Part shown: one piece after another, positions 8,988-56,861 of the stretch | How the letters are laid out: every line of letters starts with the position of its first letter | How positions within the stretch are numbered: the stretch's first letter is position 1 | From: a virus | Direction: 5' to 3' (one strand) | DNA: 64,000 nucleotides | IMG/VR virus record: IMGVR_UViG_3300042453_004661 | Span: 32,001-96,000 of that record | The notes under the pieces: model-generated | What the model saw: only the letters and a program-made list of their open reading frames with translations | The model's database searches: none | What the model was told of the DNA's origin: nothing | Position numbers and translations under genes: made by a program

Positions 8988-9680
8988 ATGCCAGTGCCCC
9001 AGGGATCAGCCTTGTATTCTGGTGTAGTGTCTAGATTGCCAAAGGAATTCGATACTTCTCACGGTCCCTTGAAGGATTTTATCCAAAATCTATGCCAAGA
9101 CATAGCATTGGCCTGGACTCTTTGGCATGCTGGTCTGCTCGGGGGAAGTAATAATGTAAGTGGATTAGGCATAGGTGGATGGGTTGGTAGTGGCGGTGGG
9201 GGAAAGTTGACCCAAACAGTACCATTCAATATCATCCATACCTGGCCAAAATCCGATCCAGATGGCTATTGGAATATTTTTAAGTCTGCAATAACGGCTG
9301 ACTACAAAGAAAAGTTTTCCAAATACGCCGACAGCTTTTCGTTTTCATCAGTACCATATGTTGGAGTTTGTGCAGCGACACCGTTAAGCCCGGGGCCGTT
9401 TTTCGCAACCAATATCCCTGGTCCTCTTGTGGCGTACAAAGCATCAGCAAGCGATCCCAAACAAATAGCAGAAGGAATAAGAGGCAAATTGCCGTCTAAG
9501 TGGTCAGAAAATAAAGATCCATTACAGAAATGGCTCGTTGCCCTCGAGGGGGCGACCGTAGAGCAGTTCGCCATATGGGAAAGCACTTCCCAGTTTGTTG
9601 GCGATACTGTGGCAGGGACAGGATCTCCAGGAGCAGGGGCAGGGTCCGGAACATCTAACGGAACAGGAAAGATAGTATAA
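8988..9680 (+). CDS. Gly-rich spike-associated structural protein (hypothetical)
   Basis: 230 aa, closely packed between the spike gene and the next baseplate gene. Confidence 0.55.
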   Translation: MPVPQGSALYSGVVSRLPKEFDTSHGPLKDFIQNLCQDIALAWTLWHAGLLGGSNNVSGLGIGGWVGSGGGGKLTQTVPFNIIHTWPKSDPDGYWNIFKSAITADYKEKFSKYADSFSFSSVPYVGVCAATPLSPGPFFATNIPGPLVAYKASASDPKQIAEGIRGKLPSKWSENKDPLQKWLVALEGATVEQFAIWESTSQFVGDTVAGTGSPGAGAGSGTSNGTGKIV

Positions 9681-12217
9681 TGTCGAGCAAAAAATCAAAA
9701 AAAACATCATTGACAAGAGGGATCAGGTACGACAATGCATTGAAGTCTGCTGGATTTCAAGATAATTATCGTTACTATTTTAGAATAAAAGAAGCGAGAG
9801 CAGATGGGACTACCGAGCAGAGCGACCCCACCAATGCTTCGCAAACCTCATCCTTTAAGAAAGAAGACAATACTGGAGCGATAATTATTAAAGAGGTTCA
9901 GGCCTGGGCAGATCCTGGGACAGAGTCTATTATCGCATTAGACATTCCTCCTTCCGCAGTAACAATTACCTCGCCATTTGCCATTTCTGTTATCGCAACA
10001 AACAAAGGCATTCTCGAGGAGCATAACGGTCTTGTATTTAAGACAATCGTAATATCAGGTAATACTGGCATACTCCCAAGAGACCGACAAGGTGCGCTTT
10101 CCGGCAAGGCTAAAAACACCTGGCTCAGCAACTATCTTCCAGAAACTGGAGCATCAGTCAATAAGCTTGTGGGGTCAATAAAGAAACTGGTCAATCCATC
10201 GAATAGCGATATACCCAGTGAAGCAGACTACAATCGGTTTGCAACAAACCCCAGCACCGGATATGCAAAATTTTGGAGATTACACAATTTCTTAGTTTCT
10301 TATGCAGACGCAAAAAAGAGTGGGCGATGGAAGAATGCTCGCTTAGTTTTTGGATGCCCTAAAGACAACATTGAATATGTTTGCACTCCTATTCAATTTG
10401 AGATGAAGAGAGATGCATCGAGGCCTCTTACATACAATTACATGATTGTATTGAAGGCCTGGGAGCTGACAAAGCCATTCTTCCCGGCGATTAAAGATCT
10501 ACAGATTCCTAGTCCCCGAAACCCTGGAGCCATAAAGGATCTTGCCAATTCTGTTATGTCTGCAAGAGATGTTATACAGAATGGCCGAAATGTATTGCTT
10601 GGTGTCAATAATGATATTCAATCAGTCCTAAATGTAGCTTCACAAGTTATTTTCTTTACCAAGGACCTGGCTGGGCTTGCGACTGATATTCTTGATTTTC
10701 CTACATTATTTCTCAATAATATAGATCAAATGATCGTAGGATCTTGGGAGCAAATGGCTGCGGCCATGGAGACTGCATTTCAGAGCGGTGACGAGAGGCT
10801 AAAAAGGGTTCTTGGTGGGGTCAGGCCGTTTGATAATTCAGCGTCGGAAGCTGTTGGCGCCGGGTCGTCTGTAGCCTCTGCTCAATCAAACTCCCCAACA
10901 GGAACATCTTTTGACCCAAAGACTTCCCAAAGCACTCCCGCAAAATTATCTGCAGAAAGTTTTGCTCGATATGCCCTTCAGAATTCGGCAATCGGGTCAA
11001 GCATCAATTTGGACTCAATCGCTCTTCCTGACAATCTTAAACAGGATTTAGAATCACAAAAAGAAGAAGCCAGGAATATAACAACTGGTGACATTCGGGA
11101 TCTGCAGGCTGATTTGCAGAATACATCGGATAATCTTGCCCAGTCTATCGGGCTAATGGATGAAGCCTATGCGACTACCTATGGATTGCCCCCACCAGAC
11201 CTTGGTCGGGCTCCAACAGAGGATGACATCATATTGATGGCTTCATTGCAAGAGCAGAAAGACGGATTTGGATCTCTTCTTTCTACCGGAGAGCTATTGA
11301 AAGAAGCCTCTGCAGATCCTTTTGTGTCGGCCAATAATAATCTTCCAGAAGATGATGCAATAAATGCTCCTCCTTCAGCCTTCTTGACAAGGATCAATAA
11401 CGGGGAAAACTTACAAGATGTTGCAGGAAGGACCTTGGGGGATTCCTCTAGGTGGAGAGAGATCGCAATCCTCAATGACCTAAAGCCCCCATATGTTACA
11501 TCTCAGCTTCTGTCTAAGACTTTTACAGCTCCGTTTGGCCGGACGGTATTGGTATCAGATGCCAGCGATTTAGCCATTGGGGAATATGTGACTATATTTG
11601 CCACATCATCAACTCGGCGTAAGATTTTAAATATAGAAAATTTTGACTCATCATTCAGGATTACTTTTGACGGCCCAGATAATCTTTCGGCTTTTGTGTC
11701 CTCACCTGTCAAGAATCTATTGTATGCCCAGGCTGGCACTGTTGTTTCTGGAGATCCTATCCTAATTCCATCAGCAGGAGAAGCAGAAGATCTATCTACA
11801 CTTAGGCCAACTCCTCTTAATTCCCGACTCAGTAACGCTGAAAAGATCTTTAAAATCGATCTAGCGGTTAATGATTCTGGCGACTTTATCCTAAGTGGAG
11901 ATGGAGACATCAAGAGAAGTTATGGATATGACAATGCTATTCAGGCCATAAAGCTTGCCTTATCGGTTGAAAAAGGCGAACTTGAAAGGCATCCAAGCTA
12001 TGGCGTAGGCATTCCAATTGGATCTAGAAACAGCGACTTAGGCGTAAATCAGCTTGATAATCTTGTAAGGGAGCAAATCACATCAGATCCTAGATTTACC
12101 GATGTTGATACTCAGGTTAAGGTAAATGGATCTGAGGTCAGGATTGAAGTATTAGCTAGAGGGGCAGAAAGCACTGGACTTATCCCGATTGAATTCAGGG
12201 TTGGAGATCCAGAGTAG
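9680..12217 (+). CDS. Baseplate protein: tube-initiator-like N-terminus + LysM-like domain + gp25-like C-terminus
   Basis: LysM/tail-X-like ENLQDVAGRTLGDSSRWREIAILNDLKPPY; C-terminal DLAV...GYDNAIQAIKLALSVEKGELERHPSYGVG...SDPRF resembling gp25/wedge subunits. Confidence 0.65.
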   Translation: MSSKKSKKTSLTRGIRYDNALKSAGFQDNYRYYFRIKEARADGTTEQSDPTNASQTSSFKKEDNTGAIIIKEVQAWADPGTESIIALDIPPSAVTITSPFAISVIATNKGILEEHNGLVFKTIVISGNTGILPRDRQGALSGKAKNTWLSNYLPETGASVNKLVGSIKKLVNPSNSDIPSEADYNRFATNPSTGYAKFWRLHNFLVSYADAKKSGRWKNARLVFGCPKDNIEYVCTPIQFEMKRDASRPLTYNYMIVLKAWELTKPFFPAIKDLQIPSPRNPGAIKDLANSVMSARDVIQNGRNVLLGVNNDIQSVLNVASQVIFFTKDLAGLATDILDFPTLFLNNIDQMIVGSWEQMAAAMETAFQSGDERLKRVLGGVRPFDNSASEAVGAGSSVASAQSNSPTGTSFDPKTSQSTPAKLSAESFARYALQNSAIGSSINLDSIALPDNLKQDLESQKEEARNITTGDIRDLQADLQNTSDNLAQSIGLMDEAYATTYGLPPPDLGRAPTEDDIILMASLQEQKDGFGSLLSTGELLKEASADPFVSANNNLPEDDAINAPPSAFLTRINNGENLQDVAGRTLGDSSRWREIAILNDLKPPYVTSQLLSKTFTAPFGRTVLVSDASDLAIGEYVTIFATSSTRRKILNIENFDSSFRITFDGPDNLSAFVSSPVKNLLYAQAGTVVSGDPILIPSAGEAEDLSTLRPTPLNSRLSNAEKIFKIDLAVNDSGDFILSGDGDIKRSYGYDNAIQAIKLALSVEKGELERHPSYGVGIPIGSRNSDLGVNQLDNLVREQITSDPRFTDVDTQVKVNGSEVRIEVLARGAESTGLIPIEFRVGDPE

Positions 12218-18242: not shown

Positions 18243-19562
18243 ATGAGCAAACTACCTCCATTTTTTTCTAAGACCCAAGACCTTCAAAAAGCCGAGGATG
18301 AGACTATCAATCCTACGCTTGGCCTTGAGACTCCAAAGAAAATCATCAAGCTTAAAGAAGGACACAATAAAGGCCGTCAGGCTAAGGTAGTAGCTGAAAA
18401 CTCCCAAGAATTTAAGATCGTCCCCAGGACCAATCAAAAACCATTTAAGGTAGCTGGGGGGCCAGCCGATACTGCTGGTCAAATTCTTGATGAAGCAAAT
18501 AGTCCAATTGTATGGGAAAAGAATCGTAAACATGATATTTTGGCCCCAGGTGGGATTCACAAGAAAGAACACGAAGAAAAAGTAAAGAATATCTACCAAC
18601 CTAAAAAGGCCGAGCCTAATTTTGTATTTACAAAAGACAATCACCACCAAGGCATCCCTCATGATGAAGATCAAAAGAATCTAATTCATGGCATTGATCT
18701 TCGTGAGATTAAAAAGCTTGGCGATGCGGGAGGCGACTCAGATGACCTTGGATGGACCGCCGAGTGGGCAGCTTGTGGTGTTGGCAAGAATAAAGCCGGG
18801 AAAAGCTGTCTCGTCAAGGGTAGGATGCCGGATGAATTTCTAGATAAAAATTCTGGCATTGGTCGAGAGATGGCGTCAGATTATAAGTTATTCAGTACGG
18901 CACAGAGAGAAGCCGTTTATTACAATATAGCAAAAGCATTAGGGCTTCATAAATACATTCCTGTTACATCTGTTGTCCACGATCAAACCAAGGCCCCTGT
19001 AAAAAACTTTAAGAGGGCCCCACAGGATCATGGCCAGGCTGGCAATCATTACTCTGTCATGGAAATGATTCCAAATGCCAAGCATTACTCGGGCCTCCCC
19101 TCACAACTCGGCACAATGAAGAGAGCCCATGACAGTGGGGACCTACACAAGCTTGGCCTTATGAATGCTTTTTTGTATAATACAGATAGACATGGCAAGA
19201 ACTTCATGTTTAGTGAAAATAACAATAATTTTCACCTGATTGACCATGGCCTTACTTTTGGATATCGTGGAAGGCCATTTGTTATGCCTGCCTATCTTAG
19301 GATCGCCCATCTCGAGCATCGGCTTCCTGATGAAATACATCCGGAAGCCAGAAACTGGATCAATAATCTCAATATTGATGACATAAAAAAAGAGCTAGAC
19401 TCCCACGACATACCTATTCAGCACAAAAGAGCTACATTGGCTGCAATTCGAAAAGCAAAAGAATCGATTGGTGGAGATCCAGAGAATAAAAGAGCGTTTA
19501 GCTCACATCTAAGAGAGATAAGTAATGCAGGATTAAGATCATTCCTTAGAGGAGATGATTAA
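18243..19562 (+). CDS. PI3/PI4-kinase/HipA-like atypical kinase
   Basis: CLVKG (beta3 Lys), QREAVYY (alphaC Glu), catalytic NTDRHGKN, Mg-binding LIDHG; N-terminal DLQK|A motif. Confidence 0.75.
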   Translation: MSKLPPFFSKTQDLQKAEDETINPTLGLETPKKIIKLKEGHNKGRQAKVVAENSQEFKIVPRTNQKPFKVAGGPADTAGQILDEANSPIVWEKNRKHDILAPGGIHKKEHEEKVKNIYQPKKAEPNFVFTKDNHHQGIPHDEDQKNLIHGIDLREIKKLGDAGGDSDDLGWTAEWAACGVGKNKAGKSCLVKGRMPDEFLDKNSGIGREMASDYKLFSTAQREAVYYNIAKALGLHKYIPVTSVVHDQTKAPVKNFKRAPQDHGQAGNHYSVMEMIPNAKHYSGLPSQLGTMKRAHDSGDLHKLGLMNAFLYNTDRHGKNFMFSENNNNFHLIDHGLTFGYRGRPFVMPAYLRIAHLEHRLPDEIHPEARNWINNLNIDDIKKELDSHDIPIQHKRATLAAIRKAKESIGGDPENKRAFSSHLREISNAGLRSFLRGDD

Positions 19563-21401
19563 ATGATCAAATTAGGGTATTACAAATTTGGACATATTGA
19601 TCATGAATCTGGAGCCATGGCCGATGAAGGTATCGTGCATGTTGATGGAGAACATGTATCTGTAGTAGACGACCATGCGGGATACTTGGCGACTATTATC
19701 CCAGACGGATCTGTTGGTATGGAAGAAGGTGAGCATATTATGCGAAGCATCAATATGAATCAGTATTCCAGGTTTGTCTACATAGGCGATAAAGAAGAAG
19801 ATATTGCCGAGCATTATAATCCAGTTAATGCCAGTCCCGAACTCGAGAAGGGCATCAAGGACATGATGGCAGGAGCCATGATGGGTATTGCAGGCGCAGG
19901 CGGGATGCTGTATGCGCCTAGCGCAACAAACCAATCTGCAGTATCTAGCCCATCAGTTCCTGTTAGCCGGGCCAGCTCTGACTCTGAAATTGTTGACAAC
20001 CTTGCAAGGATCGAGTCTAGCGGTGGAAAGAATGTAGTCCACGGCATGACCGGAGACTCTGTCCATACAGATATTCAAAGAGCAGTTGGGCATACCGGAA
20101 ACCTCCCGTCTTCTGTAATTGAAGAGTCTGCAAAGAATCCGTATTTAAAAAATACCGATATCGGTCAAGGCGTTAGAAGAATTGCTGGGCTTGAGGGCTT
20201 TGCAACAGGAAACACATACAACACCAGATCCTATATTGAAAAGACTCCGGCAAAAGAAAAGTCAAAACATTACGCCAAGATCAACAAAATTACTCAGAAT
20301 CCTGAAAATGACCGAAAGATTACTGAGGCTCGAATCAAAAACCACCGAGACATATTTTCCGAACTCACCAAAGACCCGCATGAGCTAGAACTTTTGATTG
20401 CTCATGCTCATCATAATTATTACCTAAATACCAAGAAAATCTTCAGAAAGCATGGCATTAAAGGGATTATCAATCATGCCGGGGCAGAAGGTAATTATGT
20501 GAAAAAGTATGCCGAGACACTTCCTGATGGACATCCTACTAAAAACCTTTTTAATAAGCATTACAAGAAGAAATTCTTCAAGAAAAGCATTGCCGAAGAT
20601 TATGAGCTAGAGGATCTTCAAAAGTCTACCAAGCAATATAAAGAAATGCTTGGCGATGTAACCCAACACAAAGAAGCTTTTGATGTTGCAAAGAAAATGC
20701 CCAATTCAAACTGGGGAACTTGGGTCATTAGAAACTACAAGCAAAATCCAGAAAAATTTCATAGCTTAAAAGAAGAAATTGTAAATCATGCCGGACTTCA
20801 TGAGAATCTCGAATATTCTGGCGTTAGATTTGATAAAGAGCATGACTTTGATCATGGCATAGGCATGCTTAGGGATGCAAATAAGAAATTTGAAGAAAGA
20901 TTCTCTAAAGATACGCACATCATAATCCCGCAAGGTGAAAAAAAGGTCATGGATGCTGGAGATGGAATGGCTTGGTTTTCGGCTGGGAAATCATGGTGTC
21001 CCAGGGAAGCCAAAGCTATGGGCCATTGTGGGAATCAGCCTTCCGCAAGGCCTTTTCATGACTTATTTTCATTAAGAACTGTCCACAAGGTAAATGGCAA
21101 GGAATACCATGAGCCTCATGTCACTTTTATTCTTGATAAAGAAAATAACACTTTTGGAGAAATGAAGGGCCGGACAAACAAAAAACCAACTAAGCAATAT
21201 CATAATGCAATTGCCCAATTGTTGGCTAGGGGATATGTTCCGTTTGGTGGAGTCCATGCCCCAGACCAAGATTTTCATATTGACGATTTGAGTCCGGAAT
21301 TGAAGAAATTTGTTGCCGAAAAAAATATACGAGCCTTTATCAACTCTTCTGATCCAGAGTTGTCAGCAAAAGCTCTAGAGGCATCTATGGGGCGTTCTTA
21401 A
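19563..21401 (+). CDS. Polyvalent protein: lysozyme/SLT-like domain + PcfJ-like domain
   Basis: ELEK|G linker, hydrophobic stretch, LARIESSGGKN (SLT-like ES motif); linker FFKK|S..DLQK|S; then EAKAMGHCG...FSLR...PHVTF...EMKGRTNKKP, which is PcfJ-like. Confidence 0.55.
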   Translation: MIKLGYYKFGHIDHESGAMADEGIVHVDGEHVSVVDDHAGYLATIIPDGSVGMEEGEHIMRSINMNQYSRFVYIGDKEEDIAEHYNPVNASPELEKGIKDMMAGAMMGIAGAGGMLYAPSATNQSAVSSPSVPVSRASSDSEIVDNLARIESSGGKNVVHGMTGDSVHTDIQRAVGHTGNLPSSVIEESAKNPYLKNTDIGQGVRRIAGLEGFATGNTYNTRSYIEKTPAKEKSKHYAKINKITQNPENDRKITEARIKNHRDIFSELTKDPHELELLIAHAHHNYYLNTKKIFRKHGIKGIINHAGAEGNYVKKYAETLPDGHPTKNLFNKHYKKKFFKKSIAEDYELEDLQKSTKQYKEMLGDVTQHKEAFDVAKKMPNSNWGTWVIRNYKQNPEKFHSLKEEIVNHAGLHENLEYSGVRFDKEHDFDHGIGMLRDANKKFEERFSKDTHIIIPQGEKKVMDAGDGMAWFSAGKSWCPREAKAMGHCGNQPSARPFHDLFSLRTVHKVNGKEYHEPHVTFILDKENNTFGEMKGRTNKKPTKQYHNAIAQLLARGYVPFGGVHAPDQDFHIDDLSPELKKFVAEKNIRAFINSSDPELSAKALEASMGRS

Positions 21402-21425
21402 TATTAGATTGGTAATATAAGGTGT

Positions 21426-24400
21426 ATGGCTATCCCGCCCAAAAAAATCTATACCCAGATGCAAAAGTCTGATTCAGATGGCCAGGCTCCTATCTCTTTT
21501 AATTTTAAAAGCCTTAAGCCGGAGCAGAAAGCAAAATTCCTTCAAAATCCTAATCTTCATCCAGATATACTTCATAAGTTAAGTGAGGATGATAATTTAA
21601 AGTTGTCAATAGCAGAGAATCCTAATACTCGCTCAGACACACTTCATAGGCTAAGCGATAGTGAGTATGGGATTGTAAGGGGTGCAGTAGCAGAGCATCC
21701 AAATACCCACCCAGACACGCTTCATAAGTTAAGTGAAGATAGGGATGATGATGTGAGGAGGATGGTAGCAGAGAATCCCAATGCCCATCCGGATACAATT
21801 CATAAGCTGAGTGGGGATAAGAATTCGCGTGTAAGGGAGGCAGTAGCAAAGCATCCTAACACCCATCCAGATATACTTCATAAGTTAAGTGGGGATAATT
21901 CTTTTATTGTAAAAGGAGCAGTAGCGAGAAATCCTAATGCCCATCCAGACACGCTTCGTAAGTTGAGTGAAGATGAGGGGGATTGGTCTGTAAGGGAGGC
22001 GGTAGCAAAGCATCCTAATATTCATCCGGACACGCTTCATAGGCTAAGTGAGAGTGAGTATGAGACTGTAAGGGAGGCAGTAGCAAGGAATCCAAATGCC
22101 CACCCAGATATACTTCATAAGTTGTGGAAAGACAAGTGGCCAAGAGTAAGATCTGCAGTAGCAGAGCATCCTAATACCCGCTCAGATATACTTTTTGGAT
22201 TATGTTACGATAGGGATTTTGAAGTAAGGGCTGGGGCAGCAAGAAATCCAAATATTCGTCCAGCTCTACTTGATAAGTTAAGTAGGGATACTCATTGGCC
22301 TGTAAGACAGGCAGCAGCAGAGCATCCTAATAACCATCCGGATATGCTTGATAAGTTAAGTAGGGATGTGGAGTGGGATGTAAGAGAAGCAGCCCGTAAA
22401 AACCCTAACCATCCAAATAACCAGATGAAAAAGTCTGATTCAGATAGCCAGACCCCTATCTCTTTTAATTTTGCAAACCTTAAGCCGGAGCAGAAAGCAA
22501 AATTCCTTCAAAACCCCAATGTTCATCCTAATGCGCTTCATGCTTTAAGCGGGGATGAGAATCATGAAGTAAGATTTGCAGTAGCAAAGCATCCTAATGC
22601 CCATCCAGATACACTTCATGGACTAAGTGAAAGAGAAGATGAGAATGAAAGTATAAGGCAGGCAGTAGCAAAACATCCAAATACCCATCCAGACACGCTT
22701 CATAAATTGAGTAAGGATGACGATTTAAAGCGGTTTGTGGCAATTCACCCAAATACCCATCCAGACACGCTTAATAGGTTAAGTAAAGACAAGTGGTCAG
22801 GAGTAAGAAGGGAGGTAGCAAGGAATCCAAATGCCCATCCAGATCTACTTCATAAGCTGAGCGAGGACAGGGATGTGTATGTAAGGGAAGGGGCAGCAAG
22901 GAATCCAAATGCCCATCCAGATCTACTTCATAAGTTAAGCGGGGATGAGAATCATGAAGTAAGATTTGCAGTAGCAAAGCATCCTAATGCCCATCCAGAT
23001 ACACTCCATAAGTTGAGTGGGGATAGCTTCGACTACAGCATAAGGGAGGCGGTAGCAATTCATCCCAATACCCATCCAGACATACTTCATAATTTAAGCG
23101 AGGATGAACATCTTTATGTAAGAGATGCAGTAGCAAAGAATCCAAATACCCGTCCAGATACTCTTCATAAATTGAGCGGGGATGAGGATGTAGATATAAG
23201 ACAGATAGTGGCCAGGAGTGCTAATGCTGGTCCAGAAACACTTCATAAGCTGAGTGGGGATAGGTCTTTTATTGTAAAAATGGAAGTGGCAAGGAATCCT
23301 AATACTCACCCAGATACACTTCATAAGCTGAATGGGGATGAGTCTTTTACTATAAGAGAGGCGGCCCGTAAAAACCCTAACCATCCAAATAACCAGATGA
23401 AAAAGTCTGATTCAGATAGCCAGACCCCTATCTCTTTTAATTTTGCAAGCCTTAAGCCGGAGCAGAAAATAAAATTCCTTCGAAACCCCAATGTTCGGCT
23501 TGATCTACTTCAGCAGTTAAGTGAGGATGAGGATGGAGATGTAAGGCAGGCAGTAGCGAAACATCCTAATACCCATCTAGATATAATTCATAAGTTGAGT
23601 GGGGATGAGCATAGCGGTACAAGGGCTATAGTAGCAAGGAATCCCAATATCCGTCCAAATATACTTCATGCATTAAGTCACGATAGGGATTTTGAAGTAA
23701 TGGCTGGGGCAGCAAGGAATCCAAATGCACATCCAGAAATACTTCAGAGGTTGAGTGAACATGAACATCCGTATGTAAGAATAGCGGTAGCAGAGAATCC
23801 TAATACCCATCCAGATATACTTCATAAGCTTAGTCAGGATGCGTATCAGCCTGTAAGAATGGCGGTAGCAAACCATAAAAATACCCACCCAGATATACTT
23901 AATGTGCTGAGTGATGATAAGGACGAGCTTATAAGAGAGGGGGTAGCAAAGAATCGCAATACCCATCCAGATACAATTCATAAGCTGAGTGGCGATAAGG
24001 ATGAGGATGTAAGATATGCGGTAGCAAGGAATCCAAATGCCCACCCAGATATACTTCATAGGCTGAGTCAAGACGATAATAGGTATGTAAGACAGGCGGT
24101 AGCACGACATCCCAGCACCCATCCAGACACGCTTCATAAATTAAGTGGGGATGAATTTTCTAGCGTAAGACAGGGATTGGCAATGAATCCTAATACTCAT
24201 CCGGATATGCTCAATAAGTTGGGCGGGGACAGAGATGGAGATGTAAGAGAAGCAGTAGCAAAACATCCAAATACCCATCCAGACACGCTTCGTAGGTTAG
24301 GTGGAGATTTAGATGTAGATGTAAGATATGCAGCCCTTCAACATCCTAACCATCCAAATAACCAGATGAAAAAGTCCGGTTCTACTCAGTTTGAAGACCC

Positions 24401-26762
24401 ATGGGACCAGGCTAAATACGATAGGGAAGAAGAGCAGTCTCTTGATAAAGCAGAATTCCTCACCGATGAAGATATTGCTTCAGATGACAAGGCTGATGGC
24501 ATTTATTTAATACCCCATAGCCATGAAAAAGATAGGATTGCTTCTTCAAGCAAATTTCATGGCACAGAGCTTAAGAGCGCATCAACACTATACAGGCATT
24601 ACAAGCATACTCCCCACCATCCTGTATCTCTTGGTCTCAAGTATTTGATTCATAGAATAGAAAATGCAAAAGACTATGACGAGGGGAATGCAGAAGAGCT
24701 AGATAATGATTTCTTGCAATTACATCAAGCGGGTAAGGCTTCAGAGAAAAACGGGTGGGTTAAATCTAGAGATTTGCAAGAATTTTATGAGAATCATGGC
24801 AAAAGACTAATTCCCCAGCTTATTGGTCACAAAAATAAGCTAGCAGAAGTCATCATGAAGCATCATCCGGAGTCAGTTGTCTATATTGATGGAAAACCGC
24901 ATGTAGCATTGACCAGGGGTCTAAATACTAAGATGCCAACCCAAGACCATGCATTGGCTAGCTATGCAGATAAAGACAATACTGGATTTGGCAGTCATAT
25001 GCATCATAGGTTTGTACCTCTTGATAATCTTTGGTATTCATATGCGTACGGCCCATACCCAGCTACAAGCCCAAGTTTTGGAAACGAACACGAATATCTT
25101 GTTTCTCCCCATAAGATCGTACCAGCAAAAAAAGAAGATATTAAAGAGATAGCCGGGAATAGAACTCTGTCACATGGATATATGCCTAATCTGGAAAGTG
25201 ACATAATAAATAACAAATTGTCTTTGGAAGATTTGCGTAAGGTTCATCCAGCATTGCTAGGAAGGGTCGTAATGAATTCTCTGGGCAATCGAGACCAGGA
25301 AACTCATGAGAAAGTTATTGATCATGTTTTGGACAAATTAGATCAACAAATTAAGTCTCCCAACATGAATAGCGACCTGGTCGGTTCCTTGCTCAATTCT
25401 TTGAAAAATGGCACTCTCAATACCTCAAAAGACATGACACATAGGGTTATACAAAAGATATCTGAAATTAACCATCGAGATCATGGGCATGTCTTGGCAA
25501 ATGATGCAACTTCCAAAATGAATGAAATAATAAGTAGGGAAGCGGGCGGCCTTCACGAAAAGACCTACAGAACTGCATTCGATCATGCGAAGTCGGCTTT
25601 TACATTAGAGGCTCAGAATTTAATGTTTGGCCTTGCTCAAAATCCATTCAGTCCTCAAGATGTGCTTCATGAATTATCCAATAGCGAAGTGCCTGGCATG
25701 AAAGAAAAAGTGGCAAGCAATTCAAATACTCATTCCGACACGCTCCATATCCTGTCTAATTTAGAAGACAATAGAGTTAAGCTTGCTGTTGCAGATAATC
25801 GATCTACTCACCCCAATACACTTCATGATATGGTAAAAAAGACAAAAACTCCAAAATCAATACACGGAACTTTGCCTCTTCCGGAAGATCATGATAATCT
25901 TAAGTTGCATAAAGTAATTGCTACCAATCCAAATACAATGGATGAAACTCATCATTTATTGATGGATAAATACCCATACTCAAGCCTTCCCGCACAAGCG
26001 ACTGATATCGGCATGCGTATTGCTTCTAATCCAAATATTTCAGATTCAATGATGAATAAGTTAAGCGTGAGTAGTTCGCCTGGAGTAAGGCGGAATATTG
26101 CCAGTAACTTAAAAACTAATGCAGATCTACTCCATAAACTAAGTGAAGATAATGATGATCATGTTAAATTCGCAGTAGCAAGCAATGAGAATACCCGCTC
26201 AGACACACTTCATAAACTAAGTGAAGATAGATATAATTTTGTAAGAACTGCAGTAGCAGAGCATCCCAATACCCATCCAGATACTCTTCATGCGATGAGT
26301 GAAGATCCAGTTGATGGAGTAAGGCGATCAGTAGCGGGAAGGTTAAATACTCGTCAAGATACGCTTCATAAAATGAGTGAGGATAAGTGGGCAGGAGTAA
26401 GGCAAGAGGTAGCAAGGAATCGCAATGCCCATCCAGACACACTTCATAAATTGAGCAATGATGAATATCTTGGCGTAAGAGAAGTGTTAGCAAGAAATCC
26501 AAGTATCCGCCAGGACACGCTTCATGTTTTAAGTAAGGATAAGGAAGATATGATAAGGCGGTCGGTAGCAAATCATCCTAATACCCATCCAGATACACTT
26601 CATGAGCTTAGTCAGGATTATAATGAGTTTGTAAGGGGGTCGGTGGCAAAAAATCCAAATACTCACCCAGACCTACTGGATAAGCTAAGTAAAGATGAAA
26701 GTCATGATGTAAGATGGGCAGTAGTAAATAATCCTAACTATAAGCCTAAGAATATGGGATAA
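21426..26762 (+). CDS. LRV/HEAT-repeat polyprotein with an internal ADP-ribosyltransferase-like domain
   Basis: Three units of 12 x ~26-aa repeats (VRxAVAxNPNTHPDTLHKLSxD) separated by QMxK|S linkers; then LTRG...LASY...NEHEYLV (R-S-ExE); then further C-terminal repeats. Confidence 0.8.
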   Translation: MAIPPKKIYTQMQKSDSDGQAPISFNFKSLKPEQKAKFLQNPNLHPDILHKLSEDDNLKLSIAENPNTRSDTLHRLSDSEYGIVRGAVAEHPNTHPDTLHKLSEDRDDDVRRMVAENPNAHPDTIHKLSGDKNSRVREAVAKHPNTHPDILHKLSGDNSFIVKGAVARNPNAHPDTLRKLSEDEGDWSVREAVAKHPNIHPDTLHRLSESEYETVREAVARNPNAHPDILHKLWKDKWPRVRSAVAEHPNTRSDILFGLCYDRDFEVRAGAARNPNIRPALLDKLSRDTHWPVRQAAAEHPNNHPDMLDKLSRDVEWDVREAARKNPNHPNNQMKKSDSDSQTPISFNFANLKPEQKAKFLQNPNVHPNALHALSGDENHEVRFAVAKHPNAHPDTLHGLSEREDENESIRQAVAKHPNTHPDTLHKLSKDDDLKRFVAIHPNTHPDTLNRLSKDKWSGVRREVARNPNAHPDLLHKLSEDRDVYVREGAARNPNAHPDLLHKLSGDENHEVRFAVAKHPNAHPDTLHKLSGDSFDYSIREAVAIHPNTHPDILHNLSEDEHLYVRDAVAKNPNTRPDTLHKLSGDEDVDIRQIVARSANAGPETLHKLSGDRSFIVKMEVARNPNTHPDTLHKLNGDESFTIREAARKNPNHPNNQMKKSDSDSQTPISFNFASLKPEQKIKFLRNPNVRLDLLQQLSEDEDGDVRQAVAKHPNTHLDIIHKLSGDEHSGTRAIVARNPNIRPNILHALSHDRDFEVMAGAARNPNAHPEILQRLSEHEHPYVRIAVAENPNTHPDILHKLSQDAYQPVRMAVANHKNTHPDILNVLSDDKDELIREGVAKNRNTHPDTIHKLSGDKDEDVRYAVARNPNAHPDILHRLSQDDNRYVRQAVARHPSTHPDTLHKLSGDEFSSVRQGLAMNPNTHPDMLNKLGGDRDGDVREAVAKHPNTHPDTLRRLGGDLDVDVRYAALQHPNHPNNQMKKSGSTQFEDPWDQAKYDREEEQSLDKAEFLTDEDIASDDKADGIYLIPHSHEKDRIASSSKFHGTELKSASTLYRHYKHTPHHPVSLGLKYLIHRIENAKDYDEGNAEELDNDFLQLHQAGKASEKNGWVKSRDLQEFYENHGKRLIPQLIGHKNKLAEVIMKHHPESVVYIDGKPHVALTRGLNTKMPTQDHALASYADKDNTGFGSHMHHRFVPLDNLWYSYAYGPYPATSPSFGNEHEYLVSPHKIVPAKKEDIKEIAGNRTLSHGYMPNLESDIINNKLSLEDLRKVHPALLGRVVMNSLGNRDQETHEKVIDHVLDKLDQQIKSPNMNSDLVGSLLNSLKNGTLNTSKDMTHRVIQKISEINHRDHGHVLANDATSKMNEIISREAGGLHEKTYRTAFDHAKSAFTLEAQNLMFGLAQNPFSPQDVLHELSNSEVPGMKEKVASNSNTHSDTLHILSNLEDNRVKLAVADNRSTHPNTLHDMVKKTKTPKSIHGTLPLPEDHDNLKLHKVIATNPNTMDETHHLLMDKYPYSSLPAQATDIGMRIASNPNISDSMMNKLSVSSSPGVRRNIASNLKTNADLLHKLSEDNDDHVKFAVASNENTRSDTLHKLSEDRYNFVRTAVAEHPNTHPDTLHAMSEDPVDGVRRSVAGRLNTRQDTLHKMSEDKWAGVRQEVARNRNAHPDTLHKLSNDEYLGVREVLARNPSIRQDTLHVLSKDKEDMIRRSVANHPNTHPDTLHELSQDYNEFVRGSVAKNPNTHPDLLDKLSKDESHDVRWAVVNNPNYKPKNMG
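21456..24362 (+). repeat. Three tandem ~970-bp units (966, 972, 969 bp), each built from 78-bp repeats
   Basis: The CAGATG(C/A)AAAAGTC linker starts at 21456, 22422, 23394 and 24363. About 84 bp is identical between ~22392-22475 and ~23364-23447. Confidence 0.85.
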
Positions 26763-26780
26763 TTGCATTTACCCCCGTAA

Positions 26781-26790
26781 GGGTATAATG
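26781..26790 (+). promoter_or_regulatory. Putative late-promoter motif GGGTATAATG
   Basis: Intergenic GGTATAAT. A TTGCAT lies upstream but with only a 15-bp spacer. Confidence 0.4.
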
Positions 26791-26819
26791 TTCTTGTCGG
26801 CACAAAATCAATAACCCAT

Positions 26820-29800
26820 ATGTCAAAATCCCATAAAAAACAAGATGTTAAGAATGCAAGCTCGGGAAATCCTAGTTCTGGTATGCCAGAAAAGGTCCCA
26901 GGCGGTCTCTCGTCCGGCAAAAGCCCCAAGGATTTTGATCAACAGAAGCTAGCTGACGGTATCAAGGTCGAAATGGAGCATACGACAGATAAGGACATAG
27001 CTCAAGAGATTGCTATGGACCATCTGAGCGAAGATCCTGACTACTACAAGAAGCTCAAGGCTATTGAGGCAAAAAAGTCCGAACCACTTTCAAAGCCATA
27101 CGCTTCCGAGGCTCAGCGTCGATGGGCTCATACCCCGGCTGGCAAAGAAGCCCTGGGTGGAGAAAAAGCTGTAGCTCATTGGAATAAGGAGTCAAAAGGT
27201 AAGAAATTGCCAGAGCGGGTAGAGAAGTCCGAGACCGCACCATCCGAAGCTCCTTCACAAGAAGATCTATCTCAGCAATATGAAAAGCTATTGCATAATC
27301 ATTATCCAAAAGACTTTGTCGATACCGTAATCCGTGGAGACAAAGCATCTGCCCAATTTCTGGGAGGTCCGATATCTCATGAAAAGCATGGCAATTTGAT
27401 TGTCCGATACGCCGAAGGCCCGAAGAGTCTTGGCATTATGGGGCTATTTTCTGCTACTGGTCGTATCCGCCCATCGGAAGCAGAAGGCATTAAGAGCTGG
27501 CTTGGCCGAGCAAGATCGTCGTTAGATCAGGGCAAAGATGTTTATGTCAGCTTAAATCATCATTCTGAGCCTATTTTTATGAGGGCTCTCAAGGGTGGCG
27601 ATTTTGACTCAGAAACATTGTCTTCTCACGATTTTCCCTGGGGTACTTGGAAAACAGTAAAAGTTAGTAAGAAAAACATGGCTAAATCTGAAGACTTTGA
27701 AAAAGGAGCTAAGGGCGATTGGCAAAAGGAAGGCTACACAATCCACTATACCACCCCCAAAACAAGGCGAGCTTTTGCAACAAAAATTGGCTCACCACTT
27801 GTGGAAGATGGGGCAGTAAATGGCGATCACACTATTTGGGCTGTAAGCCCATCTGGAAAGAAGGTTGGGCATTTAGATATCGATAACCACCAAGATAATA
27901 GCATGTTTGCTCTTGAGACAGAAGTTGATGAAGATCATCAGAGAAAAGGCCTAGCCTCGGCCATGTACCGATTGGCAGAAGAAAAAACGGGAAGAAAATT
28001 CTCACCAAGCCCTCATCAAACAGATGAAGGTGCAGCTATCTGGAACCAGCCTAACCGCCCATTTGGTAAATCTGAAGATTTTGAAAAGGCGAGAGAGCCA
28101 GAGCCGGACTTTGATGTTGGGGCTGTATCAACGAGTAGCGATACCGAAAAAAAGCCCAAAGCTTCTGAATTAAATATCACGGTCAAAGGCAAGCCTGTTG
28201 CTCCTAATCTAGACATCAAAAATGCCGTTAAGTCTGAATTTGATCACAAAAACGGAATACTCCATACACCCAGAGGAAGCTTTCAGTTAAGGTTTCCAGA
28301 AAAAGGTGACAAGAAATATAAGAAGATTTTGAATTCCCCAGAAATTCAAGAAGTCCATAGAAGAGCTATGAAGAATTGGTTTAGGCTCAACGAAGTAGTT
28401 AGAAATGGCGGGCATCTTCCTGACGAGGTTGTGGCTCATGCAAATTTATTTTCTATCTTGTCTGCCAATACACCAGTTCCACAAACTGAACTTCTTTACT
28501 CAAGATTAAAAGATGTAATGGGACAACAAGGGCTTGATCCTAGAACAAAGAAATTTGGAGAAGCATTTTTGCCTGGCGGTGAAGGCCGGGAAGGCTGGAG
28601 AGCATCCGATAGCCCAACAGAAATGCCAGAACACTCGAGGGAATACTGGGAAGGAAGAGCAAAACCCACTATCACACAAATGAGGGCCAGTAAAGGAACT
28701 GGAAGGCAGGCCGGAGATATTGTTAAGCTCGGGTCTCTTGATGCATTTAGTGACAGGATTCAAAAATACCCACAGGCCCATAGATATATTGCAGATCTAG
28801 TTGCTCAGCATGGTGGGGATACCCAAAAGATCGTATCCCAGATGATGGCCGATAGATCAAATGGAAAACTCCCCGATGATCATCCAATGCAAATTGGCGT
28901 AGGCCTTGGATCTAAGACTTCACGATTTGCCGTATCAATGATGGGCGGAGGCCAATCTGTTGTCCCTGATACCCATTTTGTAAGGCACATATTTGGACTT
29001 GATTCAAATACGGATTCAGATACAATCCACTATCTCAAGAATGTTTTGTGGAAATACAAAAATCATCATATTTTGAACTCATTGGATCAATTTTACAGAG
29101 AAAATCATCCTGCCGTAGATTTTGTCAAGAATGCATACTTTGGCGGTAAGGATGATCCTCATTCGGTATTTCCGGCATTCTGGCTACACTGGCTAGGCAT
29201 TTCTCCGCACGAAAGAGAACAAGGGATTGGCAAGCCAGAAGGGGCCAAAAACATTAGCGATCATACTCCTTACTTCGACACCGCAAACGAGATCCTTGAT
29301 AGGCATGGGCTTGGAAATATTATTACCAAGTCCGAAGACGAGGAAAGACCACTGGTTCATAGAACTGCAAGTGCAGTTCATGAAATTGCCGAGAAGCTCG
29401 GAACATCTTTTGCTTCTATGATTTACTACTCCCATATCGTTCCTAAGCTTTTGGGAGAAACAACAGAAGATCATCATACGCATGCGATAGATGTAAATAA
29501 AGCCAAAAAAGTTCTTAAGCTTGCTAAGAGCCTGCTTATGGAAAAAATTGGTCAAATGACTCACAATACCCAGCCACTCTCTGTTGGGCATGATGTTTTT
29601 CAAAAAGAACTAGAATCTATCATGGGCGGATTCTCTGTTGACAACGGAGGACTTAGGTCAATGAATGACAAGAAAAAGTCTGAAGATCGTTCAAATTCAT
29701 TGAGTCAAGTTCCCAAAAAACACAGAAAGAAATTTGAAAAAGCGATGGACGAGGCCAAAAAGAAAGACAGCGTGTATGGCAGGCTCGTAATGCTTAAGTC

Positions 29801-29822
29801 CAAGATTAAGGATAAAAAGTAA
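26820..29822 (+). CDS. Polyvalent protein: DUF5661-like + small modules + GNAT acetyltransferase + HhH DNA-glycosylase-like domain
   Basis: GIKVEMEHT...IAMDHLSEDPDYYKKL; PYASEAQRRWAH mini-module; GNAT motif A VDEDHQRKGLASAMY...QTDEGAAIW; HhH-like GLGSKTSRF...VVPDTHFVRH. Domains are separated by K|S linkers. Confidence 0.7.
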   Translation: MSKSHKKQDVKNASSGNPSSGMPEKVPGGLSSGKSPKDFDQQKLADGIKVEMEHTTDKDIAQEIAMDHLSEDPDYYKKLKAIEAKKSEPLSKPYASEAQRRWAHTPAGKEALGGEKAVAHWNKESKGKKLPERVEKSETAPSEAPSQEDLSQQYEKLLHNHYPKDFVDTVIRGDKASAQFLGGPISHEKHGNLIVRYAEGPKSLGIMGLFSATGRIRPSEAEGIKSWLGRARSSLDQGKDVYVSLNHHSEPIFMRALKGGDFDSETLSSHDFPWGTWKTVKVSKKNMAKSEDFEKGAKGDWQKEGYTIHYTTPKTRRAFATKIGSPLVEDGAVNGDHTIWAVSPSGKKVGHLDIDNHQDNSMFALETEVDEDHQRKGLASAMYRLAEEKTGRKFSPSPHQTDEGAAIWNQPNRPFGKSEDFEKAREPEPDFDVGAVSTSSDTEKKPKASELNITVKGKPVAPNLDIKNAVKSEFDHKNGILHTPRGSFQLRFPEKGDKKYKKILNSPEIQEVHRRAMKNWFRLNEVVRNGGHLPDEVVAHANLFSILSANTPVPQTELLYSRLKDVMGQQGLDPRTKKFGEAFLPGGEGREGWRASDSPTEMPEHSREYWEGRAKPTITQMRASKGTGRQAGDIVKLGSLDAFSDRIQKYPQAHRYIADLVAQHGGDTQKIVSQMMADRSNGKLPDDHPMQIGVGLGSKTSRFAVSMMGGGQSVVPDTHFVRHIFGLDSNTDSDTIHYLKNVLWKYKNHHILNSLDQFYRENHPAVDFVKNAYFGGKDDPHSVFPAFWLHWLGISPHEREQGIGKPEGAKNISDHTPYFDTANEILDRHGLGNIITKSEDEERPLVHRTASAVHEIAEKLGTSFASMIYYSHIVPKLLGETTEDHHTHAIDVNKAKKVLKLAKSLLMEKIGQMTHNTQPLSVGHDVFQKELESIMGGFSVDNGGLRSMNDKKKSEDRSNSLSQVPKKHRKKFEKAMDEAKKKDSVYGRLVMLKSKIKDKK
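27683..28087 (+). repeat. 21-bp direct repeats (20/21 identical) encoding KSEDFEK, flanking the GNAT module
   Basis: taaatctgaagactttgaaaa (27683-27703) and taaatctgaagattttgaaaa (28067-28087). Confidence 0.8.
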
Positions 29823-55026: not shown

Positions 55027-55027
55027 T

Positions 55028-56860: not shown

Positions 56861-56861
56861 T

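Follow-up and report, generated by a model that had tools for sequence, protein, structure and literature searches.

Within the 64,000-nucleotide window analyzed here (positions 32,001 to 96,000 of the IMG/VR virus record IMGVR_UViG_3300042453_004661; coordinates below are window positions), a single plus-strand open reading frame (ORF), 21426-26762, encodes a protein of 1,778 amino acids and contains the whole stretch, 21456-24362, that a first-pass annotation had described as three tandem solenoids and a possible natural binder repertoire. Its translation gives the N-terminal 983 residues of a multi-domain ("polyvalent") phage protein (Table 1). The ORF is uninterrupted and has a single good ribosome-binding site, AAGGTG, 3 nt ahead of the ATG at 21426. 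By profile it belongs to the LRV family, passing the curated cutoffs of both Pfam models (LRV, PF01816, 483.9 bits against a cutoff of 21.6, E 9.4e-152; LRV_2, PF25591, 286.8 bits against 27, E 3.5e-87), and it is the sole LRV gene in the 124.6-kb record, all 19 LRV_2 matches of which fall in its frame. No Pfam peptidase domain or nucleic-acid-binding family was found in the ORF, and PHROGs places it in neither a tail nor a baseplate family. The genes directly upstream are those of the baseplate wedge and hub, and tail fiber genes follow downstream; neighboring genes also carry GNAT/DUF5661, several large neighboring ORFs match no known family, and the Pfam match of the kinase-like gene at 18243-19562 falls just below the cutoff (26.2 versus 27.1 bits).

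Table 1. Features of the LRV-containing ORF and of its kinase-like neighbor, in window coordinates
Feature	Coordinates	Strand	Remarks
Whole ORF	21426..26762	+	leader, three LRV units, ART-like domain, helical region, fourth LRV array
N-terminal leader, 14 aa	21426..21467	+	ends QMQK just ahead of Ser15
LRV unit 1, aa 15-336, 322 aa	21468..22433	+	N-cap, 10 full repeats, C-cap
LRV unit 2, aa 337-660, 324 aa	22434..23405	+	60% aa identity to unit 1
LRV unit 3, aa 661-983, 323 aa	23406..24374	+	55-57% aa identity to units 1 and 2
Junction 1 (C-cap, QMKK/SDSD linker, N-cap)	22380..22529	+	near-identical DNA copy of junction 2
Junction 2 (C-cap, QMKK/SDSD linker, N-cap)	23352..23501	+	
Junction 3 (C-cap and QMKK/SGS, then non-repeat part)	24322..24382	+	85% identical to 61-nt junction core
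71-nt block	22545..22615	+	identical to 22935-23005 (71/71 nt)
Conserved domain, aa 984-1275	24375..25250	+	probably an R-S-ExE ADP-ribosyltransferase
R-S-ExE residues (codons)	R1164 24915; S1179 24960; E1221 25086; E1223 25092	+	from homologue alignment
Fourth, C-terminal LRV array, ~aa 1426-1778	25701..26762	+	~11-13 repeats
Neighboring PI3/4-kinase/HipA-like gene, 439 aa	18243..19562	+	17-aa leader ending LQK/AE

Repeat offsets of 966, 972, and 969 nt agree with the unit sizes first reported, in a frame that lies 12 nt upstream of the unit coordinates given here because QM[QK]K before each Ser had been counted into the unit. The described N-cap, SDSDxQxPISFNFxxLKPEQKxKFL, and C-cap, ...NPNHPNNQMKK, were seen in all three units; after the third C-cap, SGST stands instead of SDSD. 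A count of exactly 12 repeats per unit holds whether it is made by the [NH]PN anchors (12 per unit) or by the 24 helices in the AlphaFold model of unit 1. Ten of the 12 are complete internal repeats of the 26-aa type; of the other two, one is fused with the N-cap and the other is cut short within the C-cap. Single repeats run from 24 to 28 aa. The model (pLDDT 92.1, pTM 0.80), in which alternating 9- and 7-residue helices form 12 pairs, bears out the proposed LRV/HEAT-type alpha-solenoid: Foldseek aligned it with 1LRV (TMt 0.68, rmsd 3.9 over 222 columns, 24% identity), with PP2A-A HEAT repeats, and with artificial alphaRep proteins, and 1LRV is the sole PDB sequence match (E 0.005). AlphaFold leaves linkers of approximately 10 to 15 poorly ordered residues between units. 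Each unit has a mass of approximately 36 kDa and a near-neutral pI of 6.5 to 6.7, on which ground we rejected a role as a DNA mimic. The modules look like binding scaffolds. The C-terminal fourth array carries a related C-cap, NNPNYKPKNMG, followed directly by the stop codon.

The DNA of the junctions is far more uniform than that of the repeats. Junctions 1 and 2 are identical at 140 of 150 nt (93%) with flanks at approximately 55 to 73%, and dS in the caps is 0 to 0.07 versus 0.6 to 0.9 in the repeat framework. The last codons of the leader align with the inter-unit junctions as well (82 of 89 nt identical from 21457), QM[QK]K-S being common to the leader end and all unit linkers. Interior repeats, in turn, show no positional homology among units (nucleotide identity 0.664 versus 0.665): the best nucleotide match of any repeat is only 69 to 79%, and one of 30 repeats has its positional partner as that match; recent triplication with shuffling alone was rejected on these grounds. 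Within unit 2, the block at 22935-23005 lies five repeats downstream of its identical copy, and this 71-nt identity, variable loop included, is a recent conversion or duplication. A diversity-generating retroelement was rejected, RVT_1 having no match in the 124.6-kb record; variation is spread beyond any single region and extends to silent sites of the framework. Internal starts at the in-frame ATG of each QMKK were also rejected, as no Shine-Dalgarno-like stretch lies upstream and they would yield nested products rather than separate ones. The array probably originated when a unit was duplicated along with its putative leader cleavage site; since then, gene conversion or selection would have kept the junctions alike, and the interior repeats would have diverged and been reshuffled.

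Across the 30 internal repeats, entropy is high at register positions 24, 25, 26, 1, and 4 (2.7 to 3.4 bits), with intermediate values at 8 and 22 and none at all at A7 and L20. Variation is greatest in the loop that precedes the first (VR) helix and, within this helix, at positions 1, 4, and 8. The loop positions had been described as strongly variable and often aromatic, and every aromatic example given was found. Aromatic residues occupy 24 of the 165 variable positions (14.5% versus 7.9% in the proteome, p 0.0035), aliphatic residues are depleted, and Cys is absent. Asp and Glu reach 35% versus 11.7%, an enrichment that is to be expected at a helix N terminus. On its exposed side, the second helix is conserved, with H13, H18, and K/R19 in nearly every repeat, which could mean that the repeats share a single ligand instead of meeting many; conservation at these positions is lower in older foreign arrays, P0009 and P0010 among them. 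Codon-level conservation of the framework, as first claimed, is real and exceeds the codon bias of the genome: V2 is encoded by GTA in 22 of 23 cases (genome, 34%), A7 by GCA in 27 of 30 (33%), L17 by CTT in 25 of 27 (34%), and S21 by AGT in 20 of 25 (9%).

The combination of constant scaffold and variable surface had been read as the mark of a repertoire, a reading that did not survive comparison with other arrays. The entropy profile is common to seven unrelated foreign LRV arrays and to the C-terminal array of the protein itself (Pearson r 0.55 to 0.83, the value for the C-terminal array being 0.83; P0120, in which the repeat pattern found no repeats, was left out), and fixed frames with variable positions are thus ordinary for the LRV family. 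Natural HEAT-like families in general have position-specific variable sites that are used in binding, as described in PMC3754942. Nor did dN/dS, a comparison suggested in the first-pass annotation, show diversifying selection. Over 435 repeat pairs, the variable positions have diverged at least as far as the silent framework sites (dN 1.30 versus dS 0.71), and the ratio in variable codons is approximately 1 and saturated, so that neutral and diversifying evolution are not separable there; the framework, with omega of 0.2 to 0.37, is under purifying selection. The phage is uncultured, and the contigs that cover the units come from three lake metagenomes. Repeat-level polymorphism, another suggested sign of a repertoire, did not appear in them: the X1 contigs (share 0.87, possibly the source sample) and small X2 and X3 pieces, all Logan contigs, showed no differences and no joints in the covered unit parts, which is weak evidence in assemblies that are blind to rare or copy-number variants. 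Shares of 0.10 are not taken here as evidence of habitat.

A comparison with orthologues, likewise suggested, found no relative with capped units in searches of LRV representatives, with the junction peptide, or with the caps in metagenomes. Neither cap occurs in any of the 150 best of 13,410 LRV database representatives, and only 2 of these 150 have the His-rich [NH]PNxHPD anchor; the 53-aa junction peptide had no match in longer proteins, which is weak evidence; and none of the 151 pattern matches to the cap peptides in a metagenome scan was a relative. By megablast, the ORF had no match in 50,697 phage records, and tblastn with unit 2 returned one weak match, in Moorella phage MTATph1 (37.6% identity over 29% of the query), in a search whose repeat filter may hide further matches.

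Behind the third unit lies a domain that has relatives. Residues 984-1275 are probably an R-S-ExE ADP-ribosyltransferase (ART): R, S, and ExE, the pattern of R-S-E (Alt/VIP2-like) ARTs, are invariant in eight of eight aligned homologues (R181, S196, E238, and E240 of the alignment), and all 15 of the 15 best rows of a wide VIA-align search are ART or ART-fold toxin domains, at Z scores of only 3.3 to 3.9. The model of the domain has a pLDDT of 68; the domain matched no Pfam family, nothing by Foldseek at E <= 0.001, and nothing by tblastn, and as a single query against viral contigs it also had no match, the alignment query alone succeeding. Further copies of the domain were found in 7 database proteins, at 7 viral loci, and at 30 metagenome loci. 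Relatives that carry it are mostly without LRV units and combine it with NUDIX, VTC (in one relative), PI3/4-kinase-like, and LRV/HEAT parts, and the family is therefore modular. In relatives P0002-P0005, an LRV or helical-repeat array also stands C-terminal to the ART-like domain.

A short motif, [LM]-x-K-[SAG]-[DE], closes both the N-terminal leader and the units at the junctions, and the leader of the kinase-like neighbor is similar. We used the five-residue form because the looser [LM]xK[SAG] is not enriched genome-wide (60 versus 60.9 expected); it was chosen, ahead of the counts in relatives, from the phage's own sites and from P0002-P0004, members of the first set of relatives whose sequences had already been inspected. 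The four ORFs at 18243-29822 contain 6 sites versus 0.9 expected (reached in 0 of 1,000 shuffles), three of which, in ORF 21426-26762, are copies of one duplicated junction and not independent; with units 2 and 3 removed, there are 4 versus 0.8 expected (11 of 1,000 shuffles), and the remaining 125 ORFs of the record have 4 versus 6.9 expected. Fourteen related giant proteins contain 23 sites versus 4.8 expected (0 of 1,000 shuffles). In a second set, made up of 15 metagenome relatives from other uncultured phages that were inspected only after the pattern had been fixed, 15 sites were found versus 4.06 expected (1 of 1,000 shuffles). Five control patterns, permuted or altered, were counted as well: three agreed with expectation and two ran mildly above it. 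Sixteen of the 30 metagenome loci were examined: L016, L027, and L030 were excluded as contigs of viral loci L007, L013, and L011, a further 11 short or apparently duplicate loci were left out by a choice made before counting, and L036, identical to L014, was dropped from the motif count. In many relatives with linkers that are not otherwise related, the motif is enriched in the stretches between domains, a distribution that fits putative processing sites.

Cleavage into separate units, as originally proposed, thus gains indirect support from the leader motif, the leader of the neighbor, and the enrichment, but neither a protease nor a major capsid gene was found. Neither PF03420 nor PF07068, the T4-type protease and capsid families, on which the control genomes were silent too, nor PF05065 nor PF04586 matched the record (75% complete) or four relatives, and no Pfam peptidase family was found in the scanned neighboring genes; a weak PHROG "protease" match falls on a distant 312-aa gene. 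The terminase lies at the contig end, and the head module is therefore probably absent from the record.

We favor, at somewhat less than an even chance, the reading that the protein is a multi-domain ("polyvalent") effector polyprotein delivered by the virion and that the units are its binding modules. It would be made late together with the products of the neighboring baseplate genes, packed into the virion, and carried into the host with the DNA, a delivery that would resemble those of T4 Alt and of giant-phage ejection proteins. A putative protease cutting after Lys in [LM]-x-K/[SAG]-[DE] would remove the leader and free three solenoids, the enzyme, and the enzyme's own solenoid. The freed solenoids may then serve as protein-binding scaffolds, in which the acidic and aromatic variable stripe, running from the pre-VR loop along one side of the VR helix, would give each unit a distinct surface. 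The units might then differ in specificity and inhibit host defense proteins, as the first-pass annotation suggested. Rather improbable, in our estimate, is the further proposal that the units are self-contained, evolvable binder cassettes, cleaved at [LM]-x-K/S-D and injected with specificities of their own. The 150-nt near-identical junctions would then be recombination handles for gain, loss, and exchange of units, and the codon-frozen framework blocks would be handles for shuffling variable loops between repeats, a shuffling that would account for the lost positional homology.

The protein may instead remain uncut, which we regard as unlikely, though deserving serious weight. The solenoids would form a long jointed N-terminal arm of the ART-like enzyme, as a scaffold or as target- or virion-docking modules, and the conserved junction would be a mere flexible hinge inherited by duplication. 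The ORF is uninterrupted, with one good ribosome-binding site; there is no peptidase domain inside the protein and no protease was found in the record, gene conversion alone can account for the identity of the junctions, and the arrays that follow the ART-like domain in relatives suggest that repeats and enzyme may act as one. A hinge would, however, make no sense at the end of a 14-aa leader, which the same motif closes, and the recurrence of the motif between domains of relatives with unrelated linkers also argues against inheritance as a hinge. The location of the gene between baseplate wedge and hub genes and tail fiber genes, the nearly identical lengths of the three units, and the several large neighboring ORFs without a known family would suit a structural part of the virion, the solenoids being a baseplate- or tail-associated fiber, spacer, or decoration and their equal length a dimensional requirement. 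We consider this quite improbable: the same polypeptide contains an enzyme-like domain that in relatives is fused to NUDIX and kinase-like domains, as is typical of effectors, PHROGs gives neither a tail nor a baseplate family, and since relatives with the enzyme-like domain mostly do without the units, these are dispensable for any conserved structure.

We also give little credence to a recent lineage-specific repeat expansion without specific partners, in which the units would be a tolerated soluble spacer and the variable residues would drift neutrally. The generic entropy pattern, omega near 1 at variable codons, the restriction of the capped unit to this sequence among all those found, and the signs of ongoing conversion or duplication in the 71-nt block are all compatible with such an expansion, but the frame has been kept open across 2.9 kb of repeats, the framework is under purifying selection, the composition of the variable positions is nonrandom, and the caps are strictly conserved. 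Binding of a periodic polymer, in which the His/Lys stripe would hold nucleic acid, polyphosphate, or a cell wall polymer and the variable loops would modulate or read it with a TALE- or PUF-like logic, draws on the conserved, exposed H13, H18, and K/R19 on the short helix of nearly every repeat and on the VTC (polyphosphate-related) domain of one relative; it is extremely improbable given the near-neutral pI of the units and the lack of any match to a nucleic-acid-binding family, and there is no repeat-by-repeat code with which to compare it.

If the effector polyprotein reading is correct, a phage joins several different binding proteins to a protein-modifying enzyme in one precursor split by a simple linker code, the idea of polyvalent proteins extends to repeat-protein binders, and there is a testable cleavage motif for a giant-protein family seen in dozens of uncultured phage contigs. 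Were the units exchangeable cassettes in addition, a phage effector polyprotein would contain a natural library of binders that is modular at the DNA level, and [LM]-x-K/[SAG]-[DE] would be a new processing code for giant effectors of uncultured phages. The units are small, confidently modeled, naturally capped, and free of Cys at the 165 variable positions, and they may be of use as a scaffold for protein engineering. Should the reading fail, what is left is a lineage-specific expansion, of no unusual kind, in a common repeat family.

The units resemble the LRV family (PF01816/PF25591; 1LRV of Azotobacter vinelandii) in profile, fold, and entropy profile and differ from it in the 26-aa repeat with its [NH]PNxHPD anchor, in the dedicated N- and C-caps, and in the arrangement of three equal units in tandem inside a multi-domain phage protein. 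Small phage LRV proteins ("Leucine rich repeat variant [uncultured Caudovirales phage]" in UniProt) share fold and family, and the best BFVD matches are A0A6J5NQI3 (235 aa, 31% identity, TMt 0.69), A0A6J5PUA4, and A0A6J5NW00; an HPD-type anchor is present on contig L006. Those proteins are separate small genes or have another N-terminal domain, whereas here head-to-tail units and an enzyme share one ORF. Processing in T4 and phiKZ-like phages cuts after Glu, and the putative site here lies after Lys. With T4 Alt, the protein shares a short leader with a putative protease site, an ART-like enzyme, and a gene beside baseplate genes; PMC5512222 states that ART genes of the T4 Alt family occur in association with those of the baseplate and that Alt is packaged into the virion and injected. 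In giant phages such as SPN3US, packaged and ejected proteins are reported to be cut by a prohead protease (PMC10052503, PMC5694885, and PMC7411985). Compared with the cargo of T4 and SPN3US, several modules occur here in one precursor rather than one gene per cargo protein. As in the polyvalent proteins of Iyer et al. (2017, PMC5512222), a giant phage protein joins several unrelated modules, and the domain order is shuffled among relatives; unrelated effector-type domains are recombined among them (LRV and ART-like; NUDIX, VTC, and kinase-like). Polyvalent proteins are predicted there to be delivered with the DNA and proteolytically processed, and a processing peptidase (zincin-like MPTase or assemblin-like) is what ORF 21426-26762 and its scanned neighbors lack; a text search found neither LRV nor HEAT mentioned in the main text of PMC5512222. 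Like alphaRep and DARPin proteins, finally, the units are capped alpha-solenoids with a fixed framework and few variable positions per repeat, and the alphaRep matches of unit 1 (6fsq, 6bzx, 4zv6, and 4xl5) reach 20 to 21% identity. The variable positions of alphaRep (18, 19, 22, 23, 26, and 30) form the concave face, as PMC3754942 describes, whereas the units vary in the pre-VR loop and the VR helix and conserve the exposed side of the second helix.

The three repeat units lie within a single plus-strand open reading frame (ORF) of 1,778 aa, ORF 21426-26762, with an AAGGTG ribosome-binding site 3 nt upstream of its ATG. The window covers bases 32001 to 96000 of an IMG/VR virus record (124,585 bases; estimated completeness 75%), all 19 LRV_2 matches of which fall in this one frame. 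Pfam matches the ORF to LRV (PF01816, E 9.4e-152) and LRV_2 (PF25591, E 3.5e-87), and Tandem Repeats Finder places 78-nt arrays in four blocks along it. After a 14-aa leader come units of 322, 324, and 323 aa with a mutual identity of 55 to 60%, each of which opens with the N-cap SDSDxQxPISFNFxxLKPEQKxKFL and closes with NPNHPNNQMKK. The 12 [NH]PN anchors per unit represent 10 complete 26-aa repeats, one repeat merged with the N-cap, and one truncated in the C-cap. The first-pass annotation had described three tandem capped units of 12 repeats, an architecture that is borne out here with a unit start merely 12 nt off.

An AlphaFold2 model of unit 1, built from the alignment of the three units (pLDDT 92.1, pTM 0.80), has 24 helices, in which a 9-residue VRxAVA helix (positions 26 to 8 of the repeat register) alternates with a 7-residue PDTLHKL helix (register 14 to 20); residues 1 to 9 are disordered. 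Foldseek matched the model to the HEAT repeats of PP2A-A, to 1LRV (TMt 0.68, rmsd 3.9), which is also the sole PDB sequence match, and to artificial alphaRep proteins. Pfam, the model, and the Foldseek matches agree that the earlier call of an LRV/HEAT-type solenoid was right.

Neither cap occurs in the best 150 LRV representatives, and none was found by junction-peptide search or metagenome scan, so the capped triple unit seems to be confined to this lineage. The [NH]PNxHPD anchor is uncommon (2 of the 150 best representatives) and recurs in one phage contig, L006, where it is joined to a different N-terminal domain. The top matches of a BFVD fold search were small proteins of uncultured phages annotated as LRV, and we found no relevant literature on LRV repeats in phages. 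In the present phage, the LRV theme takes a fused tandem-array form.

New here is the pairing of near-identical junctions with scrambled unit interiors. The junctions (C-cap, QMKK|SDSD linker, and N-cap) at 22380-22529 and 23352-23501 are identical at 140 of 150 nt, and dS is 0 to 0.07 in the caps versus 0.58 to 0.89 in the framework. The best nucleotide match of an interior repeat is its positional partner in just 1 of 30 cases, and positional pairs share on average 0.664 of their nucleotides, as against 0.665 for non-positional pairs from different units and 0.661 for pairs from the same unit, so that positional homology is absent among the interior repeats. One 71-nt block, spanning a variable loop, occurs in identical form at 22545-22615 and at 22935-23005, which points to ongoing conversion or duplication; no reverse transcriptase was found in the 124,585-base record. 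Some framework codons are frozen (V2 is GTA in 22/23, A7 is GCA in 27/30, and L17 is CTT in 25/27), and S21 is AGT in 20/25 though only 9% of the Ser codons in the genome are AGT. The L20 codon is free, differing in 75% of repeat pairs, and codon freezing thus exceeds codon bias at some framework positions only. Across 435 repeat pairs, the framework has a dS of 0.71 and a dN of 0.21 and the five most variable codons a dN of 1.30 and a dS of 1.14; change at the variable residues thus equals or exceeds that at silent framework sites, with saturation and possible homology-limited gene conversion of the framework leaving dN/dS no discriminator between diversifying selection and neutral drift.

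One lake-water run accounted for 87% of sampled words and two others for 10%. Contigs of the three lake runs break at the repeated junctions and, where they cover the units, contain no differences inside them, although contigs hide minor variants. A low-depth contig piece from one run (X3), covering 22389-22503, carries the junction with 8 changes and different sequence upstream, and may come from a relative with the same junction in another context.

Homology of the junction DNA extends into the N-terminal leader, whose end reads TQMQK|S where the junctions read NQMKK|S, suggesting that the duplicated unit included a leader site; the neighbouring 439-aa kinase-like protein begins with a comparable leader of 17 aa, with LQK|AE at its end. 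The pattern [LM]-x-K-[SAG]-[DE] occurs 6 times in the four ORFs at 18243-29822 versus 0.9 expected (0 of 1,000 shuffles reach 6) and, with units 2 and 3 removed, 4 times versus 0.8 (11 of 1,000 shuffles). There is no excess in the remaining 125 ORFs of the record (4 versus 6.9 expected), nor genome-wide for a looser four-residue form. Fourteen related giant proteins contain 23 sites against 4.8 expected (0 of 1,000 shuffles), and 15 further relatives from metagenomes, uninspected before the pattern was fixed, contain 15 against 4.06 (1 of 1,000 shuffles), counts that are not fully independent since the relatives are partly akin to one another. Three of five control patterns tried on the metagenome relatives occurred as often as expected, and the other two were slightly in excess (counts reached by 12 and 26 of 300 shuffles). 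In several relatives one site falls at an equivalent position, directly behind the conserved FEDPWD helix with which the enzyme-like module starts. Taken together, these counts are good evidence for a functional linker motif, which would be new as a feature common to a family of giant phage proteins. It recurs between the domains of giant proteins with putative ADP-ribosyltransferase (ART) domains from many uncultured phage contigs (18243-29822 of the window and loci L007 to L043), and may be a common processing or linker code for such proteins.

The enzyme-like domain of the LRV protein has 7 homologues among 5.8 billion proteins, every one within a giant protein that also bears NUDIX, VTC, PI3/4-kinase-like, or LRV_2 domains, and additionally matches 7 viral loci and 30 from metagenomes. 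Several relatives have a helical or LRV-type array after the enzyme-like domain; LRV units of the present type are missing from most relatives. In an eight-sequence alignment, Arg, Ser, and ExE do not vary. An AlphaFold model of the domain is mediocre (pLDDT 68), and Foldseek returned zero matches with it. The best 15 rows of an exhaustive VIA-align search are ADP-ribosyltransferases or ART-fold toxin domains, with Z scores of 3.3 to 3.9 only; 13 of them are named as one or the other, and the remaining two, anthrax lethal factor and RHS2, we take to have the ART fold too. The domain is a probable ADP-ribosyltransferase, and the fusion of LRV units to a putative Alt-like enzyme domain is likewise new. 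One database relative, P0004, has two ART-like copies (blastp segments 118-330 and 367-662) followed by an LRV array with a C-cap resembling that of the present phage and then a kinase-like domain.

Tail-fibre genes, one of them collagen-like, lie downstream of the LRV ORF, and tail sheath and terminase genes are located elsewhere in the record, in which, at 75% completeness, neither a capsid nor a protease gene could be recognised. DUF5661 is found both in ORF 26820-29822 and at the end of relative P0006, which suggests that the ORF belongs to the same modular effector set.

Coordinates of the LRV units, neighbouring genes, and related loci
Feature	Coordinates	Remarks
ORF of unknown family, 321 aa	518-1483	motif-like sites near N-terminus: DLKK|GE (residue 15), ILEK|AK (residue 36)
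Baseplate hub/wedge gene	9680-12217	directly upstream of LRV ORF
gp6-like wedge gene, 1,929 aa	12244-18033	directly upstream of LRV ORF
PI3/4-kinase/HipA-like protein, 439 aa	18243-19562	among baseplate genes; Pfam matches slightly below cut-off; in relatives, a kinase of this type and the ART-like domain are fused in a single polypeptide
Unit 1	21468-22433	aa 15-336
Unit 2	22434-23405	aa 337-660
Unit 3	23406-24374	aa 661-983
Enzyme-like domain		aa 984-1275; followed by a fourth, C-terminal LRV array
ORF with DUF5661 (E 6.6e-12), 1,000 aa	26820-29822	weak GNAT acetyltransferase match
Tail-fibre-region paralogues	41920-45742, 54169-56350, 56360-57428	tandem genes with near-identical N-termini: three of ~420-433 aa, two of 285/440 aa, two of 166/188 aa; look like exchangeable receptor-binding cassettes
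GroEL-like chaperonin	L004:7851-9566 (genome 103750-105465)	phage-encoded; phrog_5725, E 5.4e-95; the adjoining gene (312 aa) has a weak PHROG match to "protease"
Phage contig with HPD-type anchor	L006:1-2144	tandem paralogous genes: ~250-aa N-terminal globular domain (no Pfam family) plus 4-6 LRV repeats; one copy apparently frame-disrupted

The first-pass annotation had read the constant scaffold with variable positions as a possible binder repertoire. The pattern itself is present: among 30 internal repeats, entropy is 2.7 to 3.4 bits at register 24, 25, 26, 1, and 4, falls to about 2.1 to 2.5 bits at register 8 and 22, and vanishes at A7 and L20; the exposed short-helix residues H13, H18, and K/R19 are conserved. 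Register 1, 4, and 8 are spaced i, i+3, i+7 and, with the preceding loop, must make one continuous stripe down the solenoid. As an argument for a repertoire, however, the pattern is generic, since the entropy profile is matched by the C-terminal array of the same protein (r 0.83) and by seven unrelated LRV arrays from database matches (Pearson r 0.55 to 0.77; an eighth was excluded for yielding zero repeats with the repeat pattern used), in which register 1, 4, 8, and 24 to 26 are likewise among the most variable. Natural HEAT-like repeats also combine a fixed frame with variable positions, according to the alphaRep paper (PMC3754942), and the pattern is thus a family property and alone no sign of a repertoire. 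Composition is the remaining argument for a putative binding surface: of the 165 variable residues, 14.5% are aromatic, versus 7.9% in the phage proteome (p 0.0035), and 35% are Asp/Glu, with few aliphatic residues and zero Cys. Helix N-termini favour acidic residues too, an alternative source of the Asp/Glu excess.

The proposed repertoire of binders that differ in specificity once cleaved apart is plausible but not proven, and its chief sequence argument is generic to the family. We lean, tentatively and at somewhat under even chances, toward units that would be cleaved and delivered with the virion as binding modules; the linker motif offers indirect evidence for proteolysis at its sites. 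That the solenoids instead serve as an uncleaved arm of the ART-like enzyme we consider somewhat less likely. Smaller odds go to a structural role, to polymer binding, and to units without function.

Among known systems, the phage "polyvalent protein" class (PMC5512222) is the best architectural fit for the 1,778-aa protein, with the difference that a text search of that paper met no mention of LRV or HEAT repeats and the present protein has LRV arrays. The logic of the architecture is similar to that of T4 Alt and the internal proteins.
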